The notes under the pieces: model-generated
Database searches by the model: none
Seen by the model: only the letters and a program-made list of their open reading frames with translations
What the model was told of the DNA's origin: nothing
Assembly (NCBI GenBank): GCA_035652495.1
Contig: DASRDS010000204.1
Span: 3,214 to 67,213 of the forward strand
Origin: Gemmatimonadaceae bacterium
Lineage (GTDB): Bacteria > Gemmatimonadota > Gemmatimonadetes > Gemmatimonadales > Gemmatimonadaceae
Reading direction: 5' to 3'
Length of the DNA: 64,000 nt
In this document: positions 789-63,486 of the stretch, one piece after another
Numbering within the stretch: position 1 is the first letter of the stretch
Layout: each line of letters opens with the position of its first letter
Made by a program: the position numbers and the translations under genes

Positions 789-3287
789 TTAGAAATTCAC
801 GCCGATGCTGACCTGGTACGCTCGCGGCGTCACGAAGTGCGTGCCGCTGAACGTCGACAGGAAGTTGTACAGCGCCTCCTTGTTCGTCAGGTTGATCACG
901 CTGAATCGCAGCTTCACCTTCGCCCGCCCGCCGCTGGCAAACAAGTTGTCGACGCCCAGTCCGAGGTCGAAGAGGTGGCGCGGCGCGACGCGCGGCGGGT
1001 TGGTCACGTCGTCTTCCGTCCCCTCCGCGGGGATGACGAGTCGTGTCGCGCCGTAGTTGCTCGTCGTGCACTGCGCGCTCGTCAACGGATTTCCGAGGGA
1101 CGCCATGGCGCTGCCACAGTAAAAGCCGATCGCGGTTTGTTGATCGGCGGTCAATCCGAGCGCGTCTTCAAGGCTGCCGACCGAGCCGGCGACGAGACCC
1201 GAGTCGTATCGCCAGGACAGCGCCGCCCAGGCGCCGGTCTTCTTCTCGAAGACGTACTGCAGGTTGGTCGTCGAGTTGAAGGCCTGGTCGTGGTCGATCC
1301 GGAAGTCGCCGCCCGGCTGCTCCAGCAACACGCCACCGACGCCCGGGGGCGAGAAGATCGCGTTGGTGTGCGCCATGACGACGAACGCGCTGAACCCGCC
1401 GTGCTCGACCAGGTCGATGCGGCCGGTGAAGCCGTTGATTCGGGAGTGATCCCACGCCACCGGAAACACGATCGGCGTGTTGAACAGCACGTTGAAGTCG
1501 TAGCCGTTCTGGGTGTGCTTGTTGAAGTAGCCGAAATCGGCGACGACCCACCTGCCGAAGCCCTGCTGAATCCCGATTTCTCCCTGGTCGCGGATGCCGG
1601 GCGGCGGCGGGTTGCCGCTGCCCACCAGTGCGGCGGCGCCGCCGAAGCCGCTCGACAGCAGCAGGTTCTCGTTGTAGGGCGTTTCCATGGTGCGGCCGTA
1701 CGAGGCGCGCAGCACCGTGTTGCTCCCGGGCACGGCGTACGAAATCCCCAGGCGCGGCTGCAGTTCCGTCTTCTCCGTCAGACCGTCGTAGTGATCCAGC
1801 CGCAGACCGATCTTGATCGTCGCATCGCCCGCCTTGATGTCGTCCTGCGCGTACGCGGCCTGCTGCTTGATCGTGGCCGCGCCGTTGAACACAAAAGGAT
1901 GCCCACCGTTGGTCAGGTCGTAGGGTGCAAAGGTCGGATCGAAGTTGCCGTACTCGTCCTGCCACGTCGGGTCGGTGGGGTCGGTAATGCCGAGCGTGAA
2001 GTTCTCGTTCAGCTTCGTCGCGCTGACGGTGCCGCCCACCTTCACGTTGTGGGCGCCTGACGAGTACGCGACATCGACCTTCGCGCCGTAATTGGTGAGC
2101 GTGCGATCCTGCGACACGGTTGCCGGCGTATCGGCGAACGGATCGGCGCTGGGCAAATATGTGATGTGATCGTGCCGGACGAAGCCGTTCGCCGTGAACA
2201 GCGTCTTCGATCCGATCACGCGCGAATAGCCTGGCGCGATGTTGTACGTGTCGATGTTCTGGTGCTGGGTTTGCGCGATCTGATCGTAGGTGTTCGGCAC
2301 GTCGAACGACGACCGGCCGTACTGCAGATTGAGGTGAATCGTGTCCGCGTCGCTCGGATGCAGATCGACGCGGTCGAAGACCGACTGATGGTCGCCGCGG
2401 TCATGTAACGCCTCGAATTCAGGTGGATCGAGATAGCGATCCGTCCGCAGGCCGCTGACGGACAGGAAATTGCCGGCCGTATGGCTGCCGACGCCGAAGT
2501 TGAAGTCGCCGCTCGGCGAGTTGAACGATCCATAGTCGAACGACGCCGATCCCGACGGCTTCGAATCGAGTCCCGACTTGGTCACGATGTGGACGACGAG
2601 ACTGCTCTTGTCGCCGTACTCGGCCGGCGCGACGCCGGTGATCACTTCCATCGACTGCACGGCATCGGGCGAAATCTGGTTCGAATAGATGCGGCTTTGC
2701 TGGTCCGTCACCGGCTGGTTGTCGATCGAGAACTGCGTCTGCGCGTGGTCGCCGATCGGATGGAAGAACCCGTTCGAGTCGGCGACGACGCCGGGTGACG
2801 CGAGGGTAATGACCTGGTTCAAGCCCGCTGCCGTTTCGATGGGCATCTTGTCGATCCGCGAGGTGTCGATGTCGGTGTGGGCCGTCGGATCCCGCTCGAG
2901 GAGATCCTCGGCGTGGCCGACGACTGACACCGCCTCGGTCACGCCCAACTCCAGTTTGACGTCAACCTGGATCGGCACACCCGACCGCACGTCGATGTCG
3001 CGGTCGATGGACTTGAAGCCCTGCGCCTCGATCGTCAGGTGGTACGGGTTCGGCGGCAGATTGTGGAATACGAACTTGCCGGAGGCGTCCGTCACAGCGG
3101 TGCGCGCCAGACCCGACACGGGATTGCTGATCTTGACTTCGACCGACTGCATCACGCCGCCGCTCGGGTCGGTGATGGTCCCCTGGACGGTTCCCGCGCC
3201 GCCCAATTCCTGCGCCCGCAACAGCGGTGCAATCGAGAGAATCGCCGTGAGAAGCAGGAGACAGACTTGACGAACAGACGCACTCAT
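789..3287 (-). CDS. TonB-dependent receptor-like outer-membrane protein with carboxypeptidase-regulatory-like N-domain
   Basis: 832-aa ORF. Signal peptide (LLLLTAILSIAPLLRAQ), then GTVQGTITDPSGGVMQSVEVKISN...DASGKFVFHNLPPNPYHLTIEAQGF (CarboxypepD_reg pattern). Long beta-rich body ending in ...YQVSIGVNF. Confidence 0.85.
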   Translation of the reverse strand: MSASVRQVCLLLLTAILSIAPLLRAQELGGAGTVQGTITDPSGGVMQSVEVKISNPVSGLARTAVTDASGKFVFHNLPPNPYHLTIEAQGFKSIDRDIDVRSGVPIQVDVKLELGVTEAVSVVGHAEDLLERDPTAHTDIDTSRIDKMPIETAAGLNQVITLASPGVVADSNGFFHPIGDHAQTQFSIDNQPVTDQQSRIYSNQISPDAVQSMEVITGVAPAEYGDKSSLVVHIVTKSGLDSKPSGSASFDYGSFNSPSGDFNFGVGSHTAGNFLSVSGLRTDRYLDPPEFEALHDRGDHQSVFDRVDLHPSDADTIHLNLQYGRSSFDVPNTYDQIAQTQHQNIDTYNIAPGYSRVIGSKTLFTANGFVRHDHITYLPSADPFADTPATVSQDRTLTNYGAKVDVAYSSGAHNVKVGGTVSATKLNENFTLGITDPTDPTWQDEYGNFDPTFAPYDLTNGGHPFVFNGAATIKQQAAYAQDDIKAGDATIKIGLRLDHYDGLTEKTELQPRLGISYAVPGSNTVLRASYGRTMETPYNENLLLSSGFGGAAALVGSGNPPPPGIRDQGEIGIQQGFGRWVVADFGYFNKHTQNGYDFNVLFNTPIVFPVAWDHSRINGFTGRIDLVEHGGFSAFVVMAHTNAIFSPPGVGGVLLEQPGGDFRIDHDQAFNSTTNLQYVFEKKTGAWAALSWRYDSGLVAGSVGSLEDALGLTADQQTAIGFYCGSAMASLGNPLTSAQCTTSNYGATRLVIPAEGTEDDVTNPPRVAPRHLFDLGLGVDNLFASGGRAKVKLRFSVINLTNKEALYNFLSTFSGTHFVTPRAYQVSIGVNF

Positions 3288-27371: not shown

Positions 27372-27416
27372 TGGCTCCTCAGGTTGGACTCGAACCAACA
27401 ACCCTCCGGTTAACAG
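27372..27416 (-). repeat. tRNA-Asn(GUU) 3' half, copy A (att-like)
   Basis: The reverse complement reads CTGTTAA-CCGGA-GGGTT-GTTGG-TTCGAGT-CCAAC-CTGAGGA-G-CCA: anticodon loop, 3' anticodon stem, variable loop, T-arm, 3' acceptor, CCA. The upstream sequence cannot form the 5' half. Confidence 0.8.
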
Positions 27417-31912: not shown

Positions 31913-33047
31913 ATGAACGATGCTGCAAGATCACGCTCAGCGACGAAAACGGTGCGTGGAATGGGGAGAACGCTTCTAAGAGGCGACGTATGGTGGATCT
32001 CCTACTACTTCAACGGAAAGGAGGTTCGGGAGAGCTCGAAATCTCGCAACGAGACGAACGCCAGACGGCTGCTCAAGAAGCGGCTCCAGGAAATCCACGG
32101 CAATCGGTTTACTGGGCCACAGGAGGAGAAGCTTTCGGTTCACGAACTCCTGGATGCGCTGATTACTCATCTGGAGACAAAAGGAGCGAAGACCGTGCAG
32201 CGGCTCAAGTCGCATCTCACGCCGCTGCGGGAGAAGTTCACGCTCACGCGGGCAATCAACGTGACCACGGCGGCTGTTGAAAGCTATGTGGCAGAGCGGC
32301 TGAAGCTCGGAAAGGCACGAGCGACGGTCAATCGTGAAATCGGGGCACTGAAACAGGCGCTGAACCTCGCTCGGAAGCAGGCGCGACTGACTCGTGTGCC
32401 CTACATCCCGATGCTGCGCGAGGAAATGCCCGACAAGGGTTCTTCGAGCACGCCGATTTTGAGACGCTAGCGACAGCACTGCCTGAGCCGATCAACGAGA
32501 TCGCTCGGTTCGCATTTCTGACTGGGTGGCGAAAGGGTGAGATTCCGCCGCTACGCTGGAATGCGGTGGACCGTCAGGCGAGAGAGGTCCGGCTCCGCAC
32601 CTCCAAGAACGGCCAGGGCCGCGTGCTGCCGTTGACAGGTGATCTGTGGGATCTGATCAACGCCGTTGGAATGCTCGCACGATCCAGAAGAAGGACGGCA
32701 CAACGAAGTTGTCGGAGTTCGTGTTTCATCGCAACGGCCGACAGGTCGTGGAGTTCCGTCGGGAGTGGAAGGCAGCATGCAAGTCAGCTCACCTGACCGG
32801 CCGCATCTTCCACGACTTCAGGCGCACGGCAGTTCGGAACATGATCCGGGCTGGCGTTCCGCAGTCGGTGGCGATGAGCATCAGCGGGCACAAGACCGTC
32901 TCGATGTTCAATCGCTATAACATCACGAGCGCGGCGGACAAGCTGGAGGCACTGCGGCGGACGGCGGAACATCTATCAGCGCAGCCGAAGCAGAAGCAAG
33001 GAGGCGAGGTGTTCGAAATGCCCGAGCAGGAGAAGGCGTCTCGATGA
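31913..33047 (+). pseudogene. tyrosine recombinase (phage-type integrase) disrupted by two frameshifts
   Basis: Frame 1 (31913-32470): N-terminal SAM-like domain. Frame 2 (about 32440-32660): FFEHADFETLATALPEPINEIARFAFLTGWRKGEI...RTSKNGQGRVLPL. Frame 3 (32646-33047): FHDFRRTAVRNM...ISGHKT..MFNRYN (catalytic H-x-x-R, H, Y). Confidence 0.8.
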
Positions 33048-41210: not shown

Positions 41211-41255
41211 TGGCTCCTCAGGTTGGACTCGAACCAACAACCCTCCGGTTAACAG
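41211..41255 (-). repeat. tRNA-Asn(GUU) 3' half, copy B (att-like)
   Basis: Identical to copy A over 53 nt (41203-41255 vs 27364-27416, including 8 nt 3' of the CCA). No 5' half is adjacent. Confidence 0.8.
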
Positions 41256-55694: not shown

Positions 55695-55943
55695 GAGATA
55701 GGCCTGTCGAGACGGCCGTGTCGGTTCGCTCTTCCGACACGACCGTCTCTGGCCACTAATCGTCCCGTTTGGCCGCTCGCCCTCAACTGCTCAAGCAAGG
55801 TGGCGACTTTTCCGCTCCCGGTGAGTCCGTTGTCGTCTTCTTGCCCCGCGCTGCGCGGTTCGGACCACAGGTGGCGTACCATTGCGTCCGCACGGAACGT
55901 CCGCCGCACGTGCTGACACACATCGGACAAGCCGACAACAACT

Positions 55944-56435
55944 TGAAGCGTACCGGGTTTGTCGGAGGGCCTATTCCGAAAGAGGATGTGGGCCATGCAC
56001 GACCGAGCAAGTATTCTTCTGAAGTCCGCGAGCGCTTCGTCCGGCTGGCGCAGGAGCACACGGTGGAGCAGGTCTCGCATTGGGCCGCGGTCGCGGCCAT
56101 CGCTCCGAAGGCAGGCTGTACCGTTGAGACGCTCCGGCGGTGGGTGCGCCAGGCCGAGCGAGACGCCGGCCAGCGCGGCGGCCTGACCACCGACGAGCGC
56201 GCGGAGCTGAAACGACTGCAAGGCGAGTCGTGGAGCTGAAACCGCGAACGAGATTCTCAAGAAGGCGGCGGCGTTTTTCGCCCAGGCGGAGCTCGACCGC
56301 CGCGGGAAGTAGTGGTGGGCTTCATCAATGACCACCGCGAGACGTATGGGGGTCGAGTCGAGCTGCCGCGTCGTGCCGATCGCCCCATCGACCTATTACC
56401 GGCATCGGGCCCGCCAGCTCGATCCGACGACCTGG
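55944..56435 (+). mobile_element. decayed, 3'-truncated IS3-family element
   Basis: IR-like TGAAGCGTACCGGG at 55944. OrfA-like VGHARPSKYSSEVRERFVRLAQEH..GCTVETLRRWVRQAERDAGQRGGLTTDERAELKRL, then pieces in other frames (ANEILKKAAAFFAQAELDRRGK; VVGFINDHRETYG; CRVVPIAPSTYYRHRARQLDP). The rve core is missing. Confidence 0.7.
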
Positions 56436-56652
56436 CTGCGACTGCCTCTGCGAACCCTCGGGTGCTTACCGGGATTTCGTGTTGCCTTTTCCTTGCCCTT
56501 TGCTGACACTCAAACGCGGATCGGCGCGGCAAACGCCGGCATCAGATTGATTCTTTTGATCGTCGACCGAACACGATTTTTCCGAGGTCAATGCGCGATC
56601 CGTCGACTCGATGCAATCGCTCGCAATACGCGGCAAGGCGGTCGTTTTTCGT

Positions 56653-56697
56653 CTGTTAACCGGAGGGTTGTTGGTTCGAGTCCAGCCTGAGGAGCCA
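56653..56697 (+). repeat. tRNA-Asn(GUU) 3' half, copy C (att-like, opposite orientation)
   Basis: CTGTTAACCGGAGGGTTGTTGGTTCGAGTCCAGCCTGAGGAGCCA, with one mismatch to copies A and B (in the T-stem). No 5' half upstream. Confidence 0.8.
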
Positions 56698-56734: not shown

Positions 56735-56986
56735 TTATTCCGAGCACATAGGTAACACTTTCGAGCCGAAGGGATTCTCGATCGGCTCGACTCGTCTCAC
56801 CTCGTCGTCGAAGTAGCCCAAATCGTAGTCCATGAAGGTCACGAGCCAGACGTGCTCGCCGACCTGCGTCACGCCGACGTTCTGGCCGGCGAAGACGTGA
56901 CTCAGATTGATCTTGCGGCCGTGGAAGCAGATTCGGCCGCAGTGCGTGACGGTGACCTGTAGCGTGGACGGCAGAAGGAAGGGCAA
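56735..56986 (-). mobile_element. IS481-like transposase C-terminal remnant
   Basis: VTHCGRICFHGRKINLSHVFAGQNVGVTQVGEHVWLVTFMDYDLGYFDDEVRRVEPIENPFGSKVLPMCSE. Near-identical C-terminus to 27099..27334, in the opposite orientation. Confidence 0.7.
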
Positions 56987-57348
56987 TGTGCCGATCATTA
57001 GCGATGTCTCCGATCGGCACGTACCGCACCCCAGGATCGAAGCTGCGTGATGAACGTCCTGGGTACCCGATCTTCGAGGTCGATCTCGACACAACCGATC
57101 CAGCGAGACCTCACCTAAACCCTGCGCTGCGACGACTGTTGGCACTCTACCGAGGTGCGTTAGCGACTCGGCTGAAAAAGCTAGTTATCGCCGTCGCACC
57201 TGCGTCTCCGATGTGCCGCCACGCCAGCCAATCGTTCGCGGACGCTGTGACCGTCATGTTCTGAACCAGAGGCTCGGCTCGACTTGCCGTTAATAGCGCA
57301 ATTCCTATGGGGCGCACACGAGTGTGCCTCCACTGCCTAAACGCCAGC

Positions 57349-59547
57349 TTACGAAATCTTGCGACCTCGAGAAACGTGCGGCAGGGACTCGTTTGTCTGG
57401 ACACCATGTTCGAGCGGTAACTGCGGCTCAGCTACTCGCCGTAGCCACGCCGGTGCATTGCGAAGAACAATTCGAAGCAACTCGCCGGGTTCGATCTTTC
57501 GAAGACCTTCCGCATGTAGCCGCGACCCATAAGCCATAGAACTGGCCGCAGTCCTGCGCAGAACGACGAACAAGCGCTCGACGAGTTCTGGCCTCGTCTT
57601 CAGCAACTTCGCGAGCGCCGGACGCGGGTACATCAAAAGATAAGAATTTGTTGCGATGGCGTCGGATCTATTCCAGAGAAACCGTAGCGGAGGTGCATCC
57701 CCATGCCCTCGGCCCATGTACGTGCAGACAAACAATGGAATGCCCCGGCGATCCTGTCGGTACCAGGGGTTCCTCTCTCTGGCCAAAGTACCGTGCGACA
57801 CTCCTTTGGACTTTCCCGCATCGAGGTACTCCATCAGTTTCGGGTACCGTTTCTTGATCTCACCCTCAGGTAGATCGCAATCGATTACGCATAACTGCGG
57901 GCACACACGAGGGTATCCATCTCGCTGGCGTTCAATAACATCATCACGCAGCGTTTTGACCTTTGGCAAAATGGGTCGCAGCGCCTCTTTAGGTATGCCA
58001 AGTCGAGACGCCAACGAGCGCTCGAGGATGAAGAAATCGTTTGCGCCGGTCGCAATTCCGCGAGACACAAAGAACAAATCACCGAGCCGAACGACTTCCG
58101 AGTCTTCGCTGTCGGAGACTCTCGGAATGGTCCACCTGGTGTCCGACGCGAGTTCATCAACGGAGACAGTCTGGGTAAACTCTGGACGGCTGAGAGTTCC
58201 TCCCGACGTCATCGTTACCATGTCACCCGAGGTCGGCGATGTATTTTGAAACAAGACAACCGCGGGCAGCACTCTCGCATTCTCGAACTGTTGGGCCGCA
58301 TAGTCGAATCTGTGCACCCGCACCAGTCTGACCCGATGCGTGAGGTAGCGCCGCACTGCTTTTCCGTATGTCGTCTGCATGAATTCCGAAGGGATCAACC
58401 ACGCGGCGACCGCGCCATCAGCCATCCATTGATGGCTTAACAACATAAAATACACATAGAGACCGGCCCGAGCATCAATACGGGTTCCCATCATCACGGA
58501 CGCTCGTTCGCGCAACTCCATCTTGTACTTTGGTTCAATCGCCTGGTGTCTGAGATAAGGCGGATTTGCCAAGATCAAGTTCCGCGGCGGCAGTCTCTCC
58601 ATGTGCAGGTAGTCGCCGAACATTACGTCCATACCACGATGAGACCACCGCCAGCGCGCCGCCTCTACCTGCCTCGGACTGATATCAATACCGATGGACG
58701 ACGATAGCCGGTCTTGGGGAACTAGCTGAAGTAGGGCACCATAAAACGCACCTGTTCCAACAGCGGGATCGCCGAAGTCAATCTTCTTCGCGTGGCCGTC
58801 GAGCAATTTGACCGCGGTATCAGCTATCTCTCGCGCCAACTCCGGAGGGGTCAGATGCACTTCAGGTTCCGTCAGCGTACCTGCCGCATTACCCGCACCG
58901 CTTGGACCAACTCGAACTTCGGATCGACCGACGCGGTCGTAGTTACGCACAGACTCGTGCAGGTGAGCGCATAATAGCTCGCACAGTTCCAATCTGCGCT
59001 GTTTCGGCAGTTCAACTAACCAGTTCCAGTCAAGCTTCTCGTTGGTAGCTTGAAAGAACGTTTGGCGAAGTAATTCGCTGAATTCACGCGGCCGAGTCGG
59101 TCGCTTCTTCCTAGCCGACTTGACAGGAATATGCGTCAACATCGTTCCGTCTGGCAGCGGGACCCTGAAATGCCAGTCGAAAGCCTGAATCCGCGTGAGC
59201 AGTTGCTCGCTGAACTCAGCCGACAATCCGTCGTACAGAGTGATGTGGAACTCACTGGCTGGATAGTCGGGCTTGTGTTCCAAAAGGACCAAGTCATCGG
59301 CGCGGCACCGGATGTACACGGTTCGGTGCGGTCTACCGTTCCTGTCACTAAGAAACGAGCCAGGCTCGATAAGATCGATGTGGTTGACAGGGGTATTGAG
59401 GTATTCGTGTGGAATCGACAGTTTCGAAAAGTATCTCACGGTCACGTGCGGCTTAGACCCAGAACCCGGCTCACACACTTTTCGCACGAGTTCCAAGTGT
59501 GGTCCAACGACCGTGTCGGTGATGTACAGTACTGAAACGCTGGCCAC
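57349..59547 (-). CDS. 2H-phosphoesterase-like N-domain fused to a gamma-class N6-adenine DNA methyltransferase with TRD
   Basis: 732 aa. Two H-h-T-h motifs (KPHVTVRY, EFHITLYD) about 67 aa apart in the first about 150 aa. MTase motif I FGDPAVGTGAF, motif IV LILANPPYLRH. C-terminal target-recognition-like region (LGDLFFVSRGIATGANDFFIL). Confidence 0.8.
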   Translation of the reverse strand: MASVSVLYITDTVVGPHLELVRKVCEPGSGSKPHVTVRYFSKLSIPHEYLNTPVNHIDLIEPGSFLSDRNGRPHRTVYIRCRADDLVLLEHKPDYPASEFHITLYDGLSAEFSEQLLTRIQAFDWHFRVPLPDGTMLTHIPVKSARKKRPTRPREFSELLRQTFFQATNEKLDWNWLVELPKQRRLELCELLCAHLHESVRNYDRVGRSEVRVGPSGAGNAAGTLTEPEVHLTPPELAREIADTAVKLLDGHAKKIDFGDPAVGTGAFYGALLQLVPQDRLSSSIGIDISPRQVEAARWRWSHRGMDVMFGDYLHMERLPPRNLILANPPYLRHQAIEPKYKMELRERASVMMGTRIDARAGLYVYFMLLSHQWMADGAVAAWLIPSEFMQTTYGKAVRRYLTHRVRLVRVHRFDYAAQQFENARVLPAVVLFQNTSPTSGDMVTMTSGGTLSRPEFTQTVSVDELASDTRWTIPRVSDSEDSEVVRLGDLFFVSRGIATGANDFFILERSLASRLGIPKEALRPILPKVKTLRDDVIERQRDGYPRVCPQLCVIDCDLPEGEIKKRYPKLMEYLDAGKSKGVSHGTLARERNPWYRQDRRGIPLFVCTYMGRGHGDAPPLRFLWNRSDAIATNSYLLMYPRPALAKLLKTRPELVERLFVVLRRTAASSMAYGSRLHAEGLRKIEPGELLRIVLRNAPAWLRRVAEPQLPLEHGVQTNESLPHVSRGRKIS

Positions 59548-60534
59548 TTATACCACCAACTGCCTCAGTAGGCGGAGCTCTGAATCCGTCTCGTCGATGA
59601 TACGGAGCAACTCGAACATTGCATCACCGTACTCGTTAGCTTGCGTGAACATCTGTCGCCGCTGAGCCTTGTCTTTGAAGTGTGCCTCCAGCTCGGATGT
59701 TGGTAAGCCGGTCAACTCAAGAAACGCAGAGTATTTCTCCAAAAGGTAGCCCACTGCGTTTGATGCAGCAGGTACTCGTGATGGTATGCCTTCTAGTCTT
59801 TGCCTCGGAGTTAAACGCGTGAGCGAAATCACTTGTTCTTGACTTACCGGCGCCGGCAGACTACCGAGCGCAGCTATGGTCGCGAAACATGTCGTCATGC
59901 GACTATATTTGAGCTTGAAATTTCTTACCTTTTGCTTGATCTTACGAATCTCGTCACCTGTCCTCAAGTTACGTTTGTTTTCGTAATTCAAGAGAAGCGT
60001 CTTCCAGTAGCGGCAAATGTCATTCAACAAGAACGTGGCCTGAAAATTACTGGGATGATCCGGGAAATCCTTAAAATATGAGTCGATGATTTCGCGGATT
60101 ATTGAGTCATATGTGTTATGTCCGTACAAACACGAGCTCTCCAGCAAAAGAAGCATTCGAGCCGTGAAATAATTCATCTGGTCGTCTGTCGGCCCACCTA
60201 GGTGTTTCAGTATTTCGTTCGAATGGAGGAAAACGAGATACTCGCAGTCATTTGAGAATTGAGGGAATCCTAGTCCCTCAACAATGTCGATGATCTTACC
60301 GAAAATGTTCAGCTCGCGAGTCCGTGGATTAGCGAGTGCAGACTTGTCACCAGAGACTAAGAAGAACATGTCAATGTCGGAGTGCTGACTGGCTTCGAGA
60401 CGACCGTAGGATCCGGCGCTAAATATCGTCAGTTCGGGAAAATCCTTGAGGCCAGGCAAATCCGCGAAAGCCCGCCTCAACTGATCAAGTCGGTCTTGCG
60501 AAAATCTCACACGGGCGTCCGCTGTTGTCGACAT
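59548..60534 (-). CDS. Pol-beta-superfamily nucleotidyltransferase with helical C-terminal domain
   Basis: FSAGSYGRLEASQHSDIDMFFLV (G-S-x10-D-x-D). Its TAA stop directly abuts the GTG start of the downstream methyltransferase fusion. Confidence 0.8.
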   Translation of the reverse strand: MSTTADARVRFSQDRLDQLRRAFADLPGLKDFPELTIFSAGSYGRLEASQHSDIDMFFLVSGDKSALANPRTRELNIFGKIIDIVEGLGFPQFSNDCEYLVFLHSNEILKHLGGPTDDQMNYFTARMLLLLESSCLYGHNTYDSIIREIIDSYFKDFPDHPSNFQATFLLNDICRYWKTLLLNYENKRNLRTGDEIRKIKQKVRNFKLKYSRMTTCFATIAALGSLPAPVSQEQVISLTRLTPRQRLEGIPSRVPAASNAVGYLLEKYSAFLELTGLPTSELEAHFKDKAQRRQMFTQANEYGDAMFELLRIIDETDSELRLLRQLVV

Positions 60535-60728
60535 GTCCTAGTTCCGCGCCAGGGATGACGATGGCACGTCAGCTGACATTTTACTCGAACTGTCGACGTG
60601 AGCGCCGAGACCATCTGGACCAACGGATGTCCTTTGCGTGCAATCATTTGACGGATGGCCTGAAACATCGACGTGCGGCTTGCTGAATTGGGTGTTTAGC
60701 AGGTGCTACGATTCATACGGAGAACGAA

Positions 60729-61670
60729 TTGGCAGATAGATTCCAAGTCCTCTCATTGGATGGCGGCGGCGCGAGAGGGTTATTCGCAGCCGCAGTGCTG
60801 GCTGCCGTCGAACGGGACCTGAATATCAAGCTCGTAGATCACTTCGACCTAATCGCCGGGACGTCGACAGGTGGCATTATTGCCATTGGTCTCGGCCTCG
60901 GCTTGACACCGCGCGAAATGGTCGAATTCTATGTCAAGCATTCGCCGCAAGTGTTTCGCAACCGGCTTTATACGAGGTCATTTCAGCAATGGATTTATCG
61001 GAAATACTCCGCGCATCCACTTGAGTCCGCGCTGAAGGAGATGTTTGGAGAGCGACCCTTTGGCGAGAGCACTAAGCGGTTGGTGATTCCCAGCTATGAT
61101 CTGGGAACCGATGACGTGTACGTATTTCGCACAGCTCATGACGAACGCTTCAAGCGTGACTACAAGTCACCGGCGTGGCATGTCGCAATGGCGACATCTG
61201 CTGCACCAACATATTTTCCGTCTTTCAGGCGTATCGACCGTCTTCGGTTGATTGATGGCGGAATCTGGGCTAACAACCCGGCGATGGTTGGATTGGTCGA
61301 GTCATTCGGTACGCTGAAATCGGACCTGAGCCACATTCACATCTTAAGTATCGGCACTTACGAGAGCATCTCACACCGGCGTCGCCTGTTGAATAATGGA
61401 GGCAGACTGGTTTGGGCACGGACCGTACCAGACGTCATTCTGAAGGCCGGAAGCGTTGGAATCAACAATCAAGTCCGATTTCTGATAGGGGATAGGTTTG
61501 TCCGACTCAATCCAAAGGTTGCGGCGAACGAGGTCTCGCTTGACGAGGCGGACAGTGCCGACGATCTCATCGGTCGAGCTAGTTATTACAGTCGGCGAAA
61601 CATGCCAGAAATCTCATCGCGCTTCATGCAGCACCGCGCTGCCACTTTCATTCCGGTTTACAAACCCTAG
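60729..61670 (+). CDS. patatin-like phospholipase
   Basis: LSLDGGGARG (oxyanion hole), AGTSTGG (nucleophile Ser), LIDGGIWANNP (catalytic Asp). TTG start with GGAG upstream. 313 aa. Confidence 0.9.
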   Translation: MADRFQVLSLDGGGARGLFAAAVLAAVERDLNIKLVDHFDLIAGTSTGGIIAIGLGLGLTPREMVEFYVKHSPQVFRNRLYTRSFQQWIYRKYSAHPLESALKEMFGERPFGESTKRLVIPSYDLGTDDVYVFRTAHDERFKRDYKSPAWHVAMATSAAPTYFPSFRRIDRLRLIDGGIWANNPAMVGLVESFGTLKSDLSHIHILSIGTYESISHRRRLLNNGGRLVWARTVPDVILKAGSVGINNQVRFLIGDRFVRLNPKVAANEVSLDEADSADDLIGRASYYSRRNMPEISSRFMQHRAATFIPVYKP

Positions 61671-62200
61671 AAATTGCGGCACCTTGCAATCGCACTTATG
61701 GATTATTCGGGTCCGACTCAATTCAACCGCTTAAGCCCCAGGCGTCGTGACGGTCGTCTGAATCAGCGGACAGCACTACGGGATCTCGCCTCAAGTCACA
61801 TTTCGGTACTCTGACCGTCTAGGGGTGAACTAGGAGGTCACAGCCTGCGCGGTTCCCACGCAGATCCATTCAGGGGTGACGTGTCATCGATAACTGCCGG
61901 TGCGCCGGCACCGCGTCTCGGCAAAACGGCGCCGGCGCGCTAACTGCCGACCCTGCGCCGCGGCGCCGCGTCCAGGGCGCCCCGAGCGCAGTCGAGGGAC
62001 GCCGCGTCAGCGGGCCTGCCCCTGGACGCGGCGAGCCCGGCGCCACAGAATCTCGTGCGCGACGGCGCCCACGAAGCGGCGACACGGATGAGCGAGAAAT
62101 AAGAGACGAGCGGCACCCCGTTCGATGCAGCAGCCCAATCAGAAAAACGACGGCAGAGACCTTCCGCCCGGCAACACGGCCAAGCCCCCACCAGTCTCAT

Positions 62201-62515
62201 TTATTTGTTCGCGTTCTTCAGCGCAGCGTATGTCGTCGTCTCCTCACTGGTCATGCACCGATCGCACAGTTCTCGGCTGCGCTTGAATGCGCGCAGCGCG
62301 TCGTCCTCGTGGCCTTCCTTGGCGAATGCGTACCCGAGCATCGCGTGCAGTCGGCCATCGTTCGGTAGCTCTCTTAGGGCAATCTGCAGCTGACGCTCGG
62401 CGTCGGCCCAGTGTCCTGTTTCTAACAGCAAGCTCGCCAGCGCGACTTGCGCATCGGAGGAGTCCGGAGCCAGATCCACTGCCGTCCGATACGCTGCGAG
62501 TGCCCCCGCTCGATT
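62201..62515 (-). pseudogene. TPR-repeat protein C-terminal fragment
   Basis: AGALAAYRTAVDLAPDSSDAQVALASLLLETGHWADAERQLQIALRELPNDGRLHAMLGYAFAKEGHEDDALRAFKRS. No plausible start, and an upstream in-frame stop at 62576-62578. Confidence 0.55.
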
Positions 62516-62880
62516 CGGCCGTGAAGAACACGGCGTTTCCAGACATCTCCTCGCCGGATTGAGTCGATCGTCTGACTACGTTGCCGGCTTCATCTCGCTC
62601 TTCACAGATCACGCCAGCGCACCACACCAGTCGACGGTCGCTCTGCAGGACCCCGTCCTCACGTTCGACGAGGCGCACGCGGCGTCTCAAGCCGTCGTAG
62701 AGATACTCGGAGCGGTGCGTCCCGACATTCACCGCGACGAGCTGATTGCGGGCGTCCCACTCGAAGCTGCGGCTGCCGTCGGTCGTGAGATTGCCATTCG
62801 CGTCAATGGGAGCACTTACGTGTGGCTTTGCAGTCGATAGTGTCTTACGGGACGGGTCGTTTGACTCAGCCGTTGCGGCG
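62480..62880 (-). pseudogene. RHS/YD-repeat protein internal fragment
   Basis: IDANGNLTTDGSRSFEWDARNQLVAVNVGTHRSEYLYDGLRRRVRLVE...LVWCAGVICEERDEAGNVVRR...FFTAESSGGTRSVSDGSG matches the YD-repeat consensus. No N-terminal shell or C-terminal toxin. The junction with the TPR fragment is uncertain. Confidence 0.6.
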
Positions 62881-62884
62881 TCGA

Positions 62885-63334
62885 TCATCCTTGTGGGTGC
62901 ACCATGCGTGCGCCGACCGTAATACTCGCGGTGCATGTCGCAGTGCGAGAGCCATTCTTCACCGATCCCTGCAGTGAGTACGTACCGCCTTGAGCATAAG
63001 AATGCCGTACGGCCTTCTCGATGCGGTACTTCGAAGGTCGACCAGAGACGATACTCGGTCGAGGACGCGATTCGTTTCCCGACCGACCGTCGCCGAGGCT
63101 CCAGGAGATGTCGATGCTATCGCCGTCTGGTGGACCGAAATCTTCCACTTCAATGTGGAATTCGATGTCCAAAGCAGTCGCGCCTGACCACGCCGTGCAG
63201 TGAGGAGCTAACAAGCGAACACTTTCCTTTGCGTCTAGACGCTGGTTGTCGCGATCTCCAGGGATTGGAAACACGCACGCCTGAGCGCTCGCAAAGGCCA
63301 GCAGTGCTGCCATGATGATGACACCAATCTTCAT
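62885..63334 (-). CDS. small exported PKD-domain protein
   Basis: Signal MKIGVIIMAALLAFASAQA. ISWSLGDGRSG...HSYAQGGTYSLQGSVKNGSRTATCTASITV matches the PKD signature. Confidence 0.65.
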   Translation of the reverse strand: MKIGVIIMAALLAFASAQACVFPIPGDRDNQRLDAKESVRLLAPHCTAWSGATALDIEFHIEVEDFGPPDGDSIDISWSLGDGRSGNESRPRPSIVSGRPSKYRIEKAVRHSYAQGGTYSLQGSVKNGSRTATCTASITVGARMVHPQG

Positions 63335-63486
63335 CCAACTCTCCATACGGCAACGTCTTTTGCCCAGTCTGCCTTGTCATCTCAATCCCGTTAACTGCAC
63401 TGGATCAACGCACCACCCGGCGACGGATGCTCGTAACAGACCTCCTCTACGCGGCGTTCTGCCGTACCGCACCAGGTTCATCGTCG

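Follow-up and report, generated by a model that had tools for sequence, protein, structure and literature searches.

A mobile cassette of a nucleotidyltransferase and a putative 2H phosphoesterase–DNA methylase, with an optional CapV-like patatin, in a Gemmatimonadaceae bacterium

Results and Discussion

A mobile, translationally coupled two-gene cassette is the conserved unit of a locus in the genome of a Gemmatimonadaceae bacterium (GenBank assembly GCA_035652495.1, contig DASRDS010000204.1, forward-strand positions 3,214 to 67,213). It consists of a nucleotidyltransferase (NTase) gene and a gene for a putative 2H phosphoesterase, which is in most cases fused to a DNA methyltransferase (MTase). 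The window, that is the whole stretch of DNA analysed, has a length of 64,000 nucleotides, and positions are counted from its first letter. A first-pass annotation had proposed a module of three genes, NTase, 2H-MTase fusion and patatin, and had named their co-occurrence in other genomes as a check. NTase and 2H(-MTase) genes were found together essentially always, whereas the patatin was present in a minority of loci; it is a facultative third component, not a fixed member. The obligate pairing with a 2H domain and the repeated grafting onto CapV lipases, TIR domains and the TIR-APAZ and prokaryotic Argonaute (pAgo) proteins of SPARTA mark the cassette as a putative conflict or immunity module.

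In the window, the NTase open reading frame (ORF) is located on the minus strand (59548-60534) and codes for 328 amino acids with a predicted Pol-beta fold and a C-terminal helical domain. It is followed on the same strand by the ORF of the 732-aa fusion protein (57349-59547). The TAA stop codon of the NTase gene abuts the GTG start codon of the fusion protein (59545..59550; minus-strand letters GTA TAA GTG GCC), as already seen in the first-pass annotation, and indicates translational coupling. The GTG start is supported by homologues, which begin with MASVSVLYI at the same point. The patatin gene (60729-61670, plus strand, 313 aa, TTG start) is transcribed divergently across a spacer of 194 bp (60535-60728), in which GGAG lies 8 nt ahead of the TTG. 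A scan of this spacer for promoter and terminator consensus sequences gave counts at chance level and was uninformative.

The cassette across genomes

A scan of genome contigs with the single sequence gave one locus. An alignment-based scan of metagenomes was used instead, and in total 78 non-redundant loci with relatives were collected. A 2H domain followed the NTase in all 51 loci with at least 700 bp of downstream sequence, detected by tblastn in 50 cases and by Pfam in locus L063. Where at least 2.4 kb of downstream sequence was available, it was fused to the methylase in 35 of 38 loci. The distance between the NTase stop and the 2H start ranged from -1 to +2 nt in all 37 measurable cases. 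In the basal, most divergent NTase clades, the 2H domain is encoded as a separate protein of about 200 aa and followed by convergent housekeeping genes (LepA, hydrolases), so that the minimal module is NTase plus 2H. A third conserved gene or a recurring nuclease was not found among about 50 loci. The absence of a nuclease partner at every locus rules out a classical restriction-modification system.

Clustered at 50% identity, the NTase family amounts to 403 clusters at E<=1e-30; with the limit relaxed to E<=1e-3, the number is 1,843. Members originate from soils and sediments and are affiliated with Gemmatimonadota, Acidobacteriota, Deltaproteobacteria, Bacteroidota and Betaproteobacteria. 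Existing annotation of the family reads ‘hypothetical’ or at most ‘adenine methyltransferase’. The patchy distribution suggests horizontal transfer across phyla. No match was obtained in 50,697 phage genomes, in IMG/VR viral contigs or in BFVD structures, and plasmids carry only remote relatives. Cassettes were located at unrelated chromosomal sites, sometimes amid toxin-antitoxin (TA) genes (HigB, BrnT, HicB). The 129 ORFs within 3 kb of a cassette were heterogeneous and often housekeeping genes; recurrent families were limited to patatin, TPR-Ser/Thr kinases and integrases, with three loci each.

Several variants connect the cassette to domains of conflict systems. In one, a TIR domain is present at the N-terminus of the NTase and the 2H-MTase gene still comes next. 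In another (L082:1-3960), the NTase is followed by a 2H domain fused N-terminally to TIR-APAZ and then by a short pAgo (pAgo_I, 5e-198). This is a SPARTA system fronted by an NTase and 2H pair, a variant for which no published description was found. Protein P0362 (548 aa) has a DEDD 3'-5' exonuclease fused to the NTase N-terminus, with a match to the PADLOC ‘Effector Exonuclease’ model of the cyclic oligonucleotide-based antiphage signalling system (CBASS) at 3.5e-38.

One candidate variant was rejected. An apparent triple fusion of NTase, 2H and MTase (P0205, 1057 aa, L089:7035-10208) is probably an assembly artefact: the contig has a coverage of 1.07x, tblastn revealed frame shifts within the reading frame, and the genes are separate at locus L008, with which the contig is syntenic. 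It is a caution for fusion-based (Rosetta-stone) reasoning on low-coverage long-read contigs.

The nucleotidyltransferase

The NTase carries the catalytic motif G41-S42...D53-x-D55, and the G-S...D-x-D centre is invariant in 23 homologues. Among the PADLOC models, it matched the candidate-system protein PDC-M70A (1.5e-26, 91.5 bits; a true member from Mesorhizobium reaches 487) and neither a CBASS cyclase nor AbiE, MenT or another TA NTase. The Pfam NTP_transf_2 match was below threshold. In NCBIfam, the only matches were to the N-terminal NTase regions of GlnD, with 12-16 bits against equivalog cut-offs of 519-1255. A search of the PDB by Foldseek with the AlphaFold2 (AF2) model (pLDDT 86) retrieved DrrA as the top match (E=8e-4), followed by GlnE, aminoglycoside NTases and MNT antitoxins, all weak with a TM score of about 0.4. 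The top 50 matches included none of cGAS, OAS or a cGAS/DncV-like nucleotidyltransferase (CD-NTase). Neither the sequence nor the fold of the NTase is that of a CD-NTase; the enzyme is a distant cousin of PDC-M70A. The earlier view that it resembles GlnD/GlnE-type enzymes more than CD-NTases agrees with PADLOC, NCBIfam and Foldseek, with the matches to DrrA and GlnE being weak.

In view of these matches, the cassette could be a switch that nucleotidylates proteins in the manner of GlnE, GlnD, DrrA or MntA. In this case, the NTase would transfer AMP or UMP to a client and the 2H domain would remove the nucleotide; the client, held off or on, would be the fused MTase, TIR or TIR-APAZ domain, or CapV in trans. 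The order of the structural matches, the restriction of NCBIfam matches to GlnD NTase regions and the fact that possible client domains are always fused to, or encoded beside, the NTase and 2H enzymes speak for such a switch. However, a TM score of about 0.4 and bit scores of 12-16 against cut-offs above 500 are low, and free-standing NTase and 2H pairs have no client. Established 2H enzymology also argues against it: in 2H reactions, the oxygen used or released is at the 2' or 3' position of a ribose, and such enzymes do not typically act on a Tyr/Ser-O-P-5'-adenosine adduct. The switch is considered improbable.

The 732-aa fusion protein

The first 145 residues of the fusion protein (59113..59547, minus strand) are predicted to form a 2H phosphoesterase domain with the motifs H34-V-T36 and H101-I-T103, in line with the signature recognised in the first-pass annotation. 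In an alignment of 34 diverse N-terminal domains, H34, T36 and H101 were the sole invariant residues, and T/S103 was conserved in at least 90%. The window domain itself had no Pfam match. Of its 34 relatives, 17 matched Pfam 2_5_RNA_ligase2 (E<=1, best 3e-6) and a few matched 2H-SAK, LigT_PEase or Acb1. Free-standing 2H orthologues scored 26.6-26.9 bits against a Pfam gathering score of 27. In the AF2 model, residues 1-145 are confident and show an alpha/beta pattern; a Foldseek search with the whole protein returned methylases only. A homologue search with the 225-aa N-terminal domain alone gave 5 matches. A profile of the 2H domain had T4 Acb1 as the top PDB match, with both HxT motifs aligned and a weak E-value (E=0.13).

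Acb1 is an anti-CBASS protein, and this match could indicate that a mobile element carries the cassette for counter-defence: the methylase would shield the DNA of the element from restriction, and the Acb1-like 2H domain would destroy nucleotide signals of CBASS or other host systems. Combinations of a 2H domain with an MTase domain have been described among polyvalent anti-defence proteins of phages and plasmids (PMC5512222), and insertion sequence (IS) and integrase relics are located nearby. Yet the family is absent from the phage genomes and IMG/VR, its plasmid relatives are remote, and the cassettes reside in chromosomes next to housekeeping genes. Adjacency to CapV and fusions to TIR and SPARTA effectors are the opposite of what is expected for anti-defence. 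The counter-defence origin is very improbable.

The 2H domain is connected by a helical linker and a disordered segment (residues 146-232; 58852..59112, minus strand; AF2 helices at 158-199, pLDDT <50 at 210-229). Nowhere else in the fusion protein is conservation as low (mean pairwise identity 0.13-0.31). The remainder is a complete gamma-class DNA N6-adenine MTase with a target-recognition domain. The catalytic domain (residues 233-440; 58228..58851, minus strand) has motif I FGDPAVGTG (258-266) and motif IV NPPY (328-331), both invariant in 37 homologues. It matched Pfam Eco57I with 36.4 bits (cut-off 25.3), and the fusion protein matched PADLOC MTase_II at 1.9e-102. The AF2 model of the fusion protein (pLDDT 84) retrieved CamA and M.BseCI by Foldseek at E ~6e-21. 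The target-recognition domain is of the M_Eco57I_C type (residues 441-705; 57433..58227, minus strand; precomputed PF22837). Full-length superposition on the DNA complexes of CamA and M.BseCI gave target-normalised TM scores of 0.64-0.67. The earlier assignment as a complete N6-adenine MTase thus agrees with profile and fold. The target-recognition region and the 2H domain are equally conserved (mean pairwise identity 0.51), so that the specificity is not obviously diversifying.

The conserved target recognition recalls the orphan methylase CamA, the best structural match. Together with the absence of a restriction enzyme at every locus and the many housekeeping neighbours, this is consistent with a role outside immunity, in which an orphan DNA methylase, accompanied by enzymes that process nucleotides or RNA ends, would serve epigenetic regulation or RNA repair. 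Such a role is quite improbable in view of the patchy distribution suggesting transfer across phyla, the position of the window genes in a low-GC island beside attachment-site (att) and IS relics, the fusions and links to TIR, SPARTA and CapV, and the homology of the NTase to PDC-M70A, a candidate from defence islands.

The patatin as an optional partner

The patatin has the motifs GGGxRG, G-T-S46-T-G and D176-G-G, with an intact S46/D176 dyad. It reached 265 bits with the NCBIfam CBASS_lipase equivalog (NF041079; cut-off 200) and 4.7e-100 with the PADLOC model for CBASS phospholipase effectors. CapV structures in the PDB were matched at 2e-42 and 1e-34. The divergent patatin with a Ser-Asp dyad of the first-pass annotation can thus be specified: judged by its sequence, it is a bona fide CapV-type CBASS effector. 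Its closest annotated relative is the CapV of a Methylomagnum plasmid (pRS11DPr6) with 55% identity. The Methylomagnum CapV is 70% identical to the patatins of loci L030 and L035 and its gene is followed by that of a genuine SMODS+AGS-C CD-NTase.

The residues F147, K149, D159, E207 and R279 of AbCapV are reported to be required for 3'3'-cGAMP binding (PMC12480259). At positions 147, 149, 159 and 207, the window patatin reads V-F-R...D...E, with residue types matching canonical CapVs encoded with cyclases. R279 in the alpha10 region aligns too poorly to be scored in cassette-linked patatins. At the four scorable positions, these patatins as a group share the residue types of canonical, cyclase-partnered CapVs. 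The retention of nucleotide-binding residue types at four of five positions implies that they should still need a nucleotide activator. From these four positions, cassette-linked patatins look like ordinary ligand-gated lipases.

A CapV-like patatin flanked the cassette in 5 of the 43 loci with at least 1 kb of flanking sequence. These loci belong to 3-4 separate NTase clades and have four gene orders. The patatin gene is divergent and upstream in the window and in L058, co-directional and upstream in L030 and L035, and co-directional and downstream in L093. In L030, a transposase gene is located upstream of the patatin gene. In L030 and L035, the cassette NTase takes the exact operon position that the CD-NTase has beside the Methylomagnum CapV. 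No CD-NTase was found near the five patatin-linked cassettes by tblastn with two CD-NTases. For the window, a degraded CD-NTase was sought 3' of the patatin gene and throughout by tblastn with two CD-NTases and by ORF scan, and none was found. The ORFs of at least 130 aa in the window included no Cap2, Cap3, SAVED or cyclase gene, as expected from the earlier statement that this is not a canonical CBASS. Elsewhere, a cyclase accompanies CapV almost universally. Four independent cases of a CapV gene directly beside the cassette and lacking a cyclase are very unlikely by chance, a rough judgement made from the rarity of CapV genes rather than from a computed background rate. The recurrence makes a functional link between NTase and lipase plausible, solely as an optional add-on.

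A CapV without an annotated CD-NTase was also observed on a plasmid of Gloeothece citriformis PCC 7424 (NC_011732.1, L087, 114-4660). The genes behind it code for a ‘nucleotide kinase domain’ protein, a MazG-like NTP pyrophosphohydrolase and a TIR protein, and the arrangement may represent a second non-canonical wiring of CapV.

Proposed mechanism

The NTase may write a nucleotide product that the 2H domain erases; in patatin-bearing variants, the product would gate CapV and the NTase would replace the CD-NTase. This reading is preferred, tentatively, with the possibility of being wrong somewhat larger than that of being right. 2H enzymes and the alternative partners of the NTase, the DEDD exonuclease and the EndoIV-like protein of PDC-M70, act on phosphodiesters at the 2' or 3' oxygen of a ribose. 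This chemistry points to a 2'- or 3'-OH as the most likely site of nucleotide addition by the NTase, and a protein-AMP adduct is a less likely product than an oligonucleotide or an adduct at a 3' end. Candidate products are a short oligonucleotide, linear or cyclic, and a 3' end that carries an added nucleotide. Removal by the 2H domain would keep it low in uninfected cells. Once accumulating, it would serve as the activating ligand of the CapV lipase in patatin-bearing versions, with membrane damage and abortive infection as the outcome. The NTase would thereby stand in for the CD-NTase of CBASS. The DNA of the cell itself would be marked by the fused methylase, which may also tie the activity of the eraser to the presence of unmethylated, foreign DNA. 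Of all steps in the model, this coupling of methylation to signalling is the most speculative.

Several observations support this reading, in which the role of signal synthase is inferred for the NTase. The cassette is autonomous, with near-constant NTase and 2H(-MTase) pairing amid heterogeneous neighbours, and its association with cyclase-less CapV genes recurs. Catalytic residues are invariant in NTase, 2H domain and MTase. Modules of conflict systems are attached in the TIR-NTase fusions, the TIR-APAZ/pAgo locus, the exonuclease fusion P0362 and PDC-M70A with its EndoIV-like partner. The 2H profile has the signal-degrading Acb1 as its top, weak match. Hailong HalB and mCpol are precedents for Pol-beta enzymes outside the CD-NTases that are able to make immune signals.

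A number of findings weigh against this reading. The nearest solved folds of the NTase, weak matches with a TM score of about 0.4, are AMPylators of proteins or small molecules and not cGAS, OAS or CD-NTases. About 88% of the cassettes are without a recognisable effector, which excludes lipase signalling as a mechanism common to all cassettes. Cassette-linked patatins form no distinct clade: those of L030 and L035 are 70% identical to a canonical CapV and 57% to that of the window. Repeated capture, or orphaned CBASS effectors, therefore fits as well as co-evolution. As the contigs are from metagenome-assembled genomes, a CD-NTase may be encoded elsewhere in the patatin-bearing genomes. Neighbourhoods are not clearly defence islands, with no strong enrichment among the 129 neighbouring ORFs.

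The scarcity of separate effectors would be explained by a TA-like writer and eraser pair that operates without a second messenger and has the patatin as a neighbouring orphan CBASS effector. The NTase would be a toxin that nucleotidylates a macromolecule, for example 3' ends of tRNA or other RNA as in MenT and AbiEii, or DNA as in DarT. The 2H domain would be an enzymatic antidote that trims the adduct, comparable to DarG, and the methylase a passenger or an addiction-enhancing module. The minimal form with a free-standing 2H protein between convergent housekeeping genes, the insertion at unrelated chromosomal sites, at times amid TA genes, and the tight translational coupling typical for TA pairs fit this alternative, and the DEDD exonuclease and the EndoIV-like protein are 3'-end trimmers. 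It leaves unexplained why cyclase-less CapV genes flank the cassette in 3-4 lineages and four arrangements, why TIR and TIR-APAZ occur as fusions with the two cassette proteins and why a sequence-specific methylase of 500 aa is retained in 35 of 38 loci. The PADLOC models of AbiE, MenT and other TA NTases were also unmatched. The TA-like pair is the main rival of the signalling reading and a real possibility, if a doubtful one.

In its full form, the preferred signalling reading describes an activation of CapV independent of CD-NTases. A GlnE/DrrA-like NTase would produce a messenger that is constantly erased by a 2H domain fused to a sequence-specific methylase. Self/non-self discrimination by methylation would be wired to abortive infection, and the same NTase and 2H front end would plug into CapV, TIR and SPARTA effectors. 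As a whole, this chain is unlikely.

Relation to known systems

Type I CBASS with CapV, as in Methylomagnum pRS11DPr6 or with AbCapV and VcCapV, shares a true CapV beside an NTase gene. It differs in that the cassette NTase is not a CD-NTase, has an obligate 2H-methylase partner and in most cases lacks a CapV. The lipase is a CBASS effector, but the lack of a CD-NTase excludes the locus from CBASS.

PDC-M70, composed of an NTase (A) and an EndoIV-like TIM-barrel protein (B), has a homologous NTase with a putative phosphodiesterase directly next to it. The partner in the window has instead a 2H fold and a fused methylase. The locus is not a member of PDC-M70, since a 2H-MTase is in the place of PDC-M70B (AP_endonuc_2). 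A literature search for PDC-M70 found nothing beyond its status as a computational candidate and no mechanism. A Mesorhizobium plasmid (NZ_CP080530.1, L084) carries PDC-M70 as NTase and AP_endonuc_2 genes with overlapping stop and start codons, in a region rich in SIR2, ThiF and ImmA. On a 4.5-kb Escherichia coli plasmid (NZ_CP092257.1, L083), a lone PDC-M70A-like NTase gene is the only cargo.

OAS with 2'-5' phosphodiesterases and CBASS with Acb1 also combine a Pol-beta NTase with a small 2H phosphodiesterase. In these, writer and eraser are split between host and virus, whereas they are obligately co-encoded in the cassette. The cassette NTase has no OAS/cGAS-like fold, and 2_5_RNA_ligase2 was a more common match for the 2H domain than Acb1. 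GlnE, GlnD, DrrA and MntA share the G-x11-D-x-D core and a helical C-terminal domain, besides being the top Foldseek and NCBIfam matches. Similarity is very low, the cassette NTase has no regulatory domains of GlnD or GlnE, and its eraser is a 2H enzyme rather than an HD domain, a second NTase or a PP2C. DarTG and HEPN-MNT are likewise tightly coupled pairs of opposing enzymes scattered in chromosomes, sometimes among TA loci. They belong to unrelated enzyme families, and the putative eraser of the cassette carries a large DNA methylase.

CamA, M.BseCI and M.TaqI share with the cassette MTase the complete set of catalytic and target-recognition parts, NPPY and motif I included. Unlike them, the cassette MTase has an N-terminal 2H domain, is always located behind an NTase and has no restriction enzyme; without a nuclease, it does not belong to type II restriction-modification systems. 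SPARTA, with a short pAgo and TIR-APAZ, is joined to an NTase and 2H pair in the related locus L082. The described SPARTA systems have neither NTase nor 2H domain, and the window has no pAgo.

Overall, the cassette is most like a nucleotide-signalling or writer/eraser conflict module composed of known domain families. Literature searches found no published description of a combination of NTase, 2H and MTase, of an anti-phage 2H system or of SPARTA with an NTase, which agrees with the assessment in the first-pass annotation that the combination is undescribed.

Genomic setting

The three genes are located in a region of lower GC content (0.45-0.57 across ~57800-61800; whole window 0.622), which ends with a sharp rise to 0.69 at ~61800. 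The patch of about 50% GC beside a tRNA-Asn fragment and IS debris was thus correctly recognised at first pass. The left edge is marked by an att-like relic, a 3' fragment of tRNA-Asn (56653-56697, plus strand) that extends from the anticodon loop (GTT) to CCA. A search for a matching repeat at the right edge gave just short repeats at chance level. Two further fragments are located on the minus strand (27372-27416 and 41211-41255); they are mutually identical, and the plus-strand copy differs by one base. Three copies of 45 nt in the window compare with 0 expected by chance. An intact tRNA was not detected in the window by ARAGORN or Rfam. The fragments suggest serial att relics and a patchwork of integrated elements between 27 and 57 kb. 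Integrase-like and IS3-like ORFs, judged by eye, are located near the fragments, for example at 31913-33047 and 41916-42815.

A remnant of an IS3-family element (55769..56690, plus strand) comprises orfA with an HTH_Tnp_1 domain (55769-56239, plus strand), an ALIL frameshift pseudoknot (56270-56387, 89 bits) and a truncated orfB. Between the tRNA fragment and the methylase gene, a 136-aa ORF (56735-57145, minus strand) has a C-terminus that resembles by eye the end of an rve-type transposase; it had no Pfam match. Directly to the right of the island, 62201-63346 (minus strand) codes for a small TPR protein, an RHS-repeat fragment and a PKD-domain protein. The cassette of locus L092 is likewise embedded amid RHS/TcdB-type toxin genes, which may be a coincidence.

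Conclusion

If the NTase makes the messenger of CapV, it would represent a new class of signal synthases in bacterial immunity, and the cassette would be the first direct coupling of a DNA methylase with nucleotide signalling. If NTase and 2H domain are instead a TA-like writer and eraser pair, they would define a new enzymatic TA type. Either way, annotation and defence-finder pipelines mislabel the cassette as an orphan or type II methylase. The minority of genomes that pair the cassette with a cyclase-less CBASS lipase hints at a new wiring of immune signalling.

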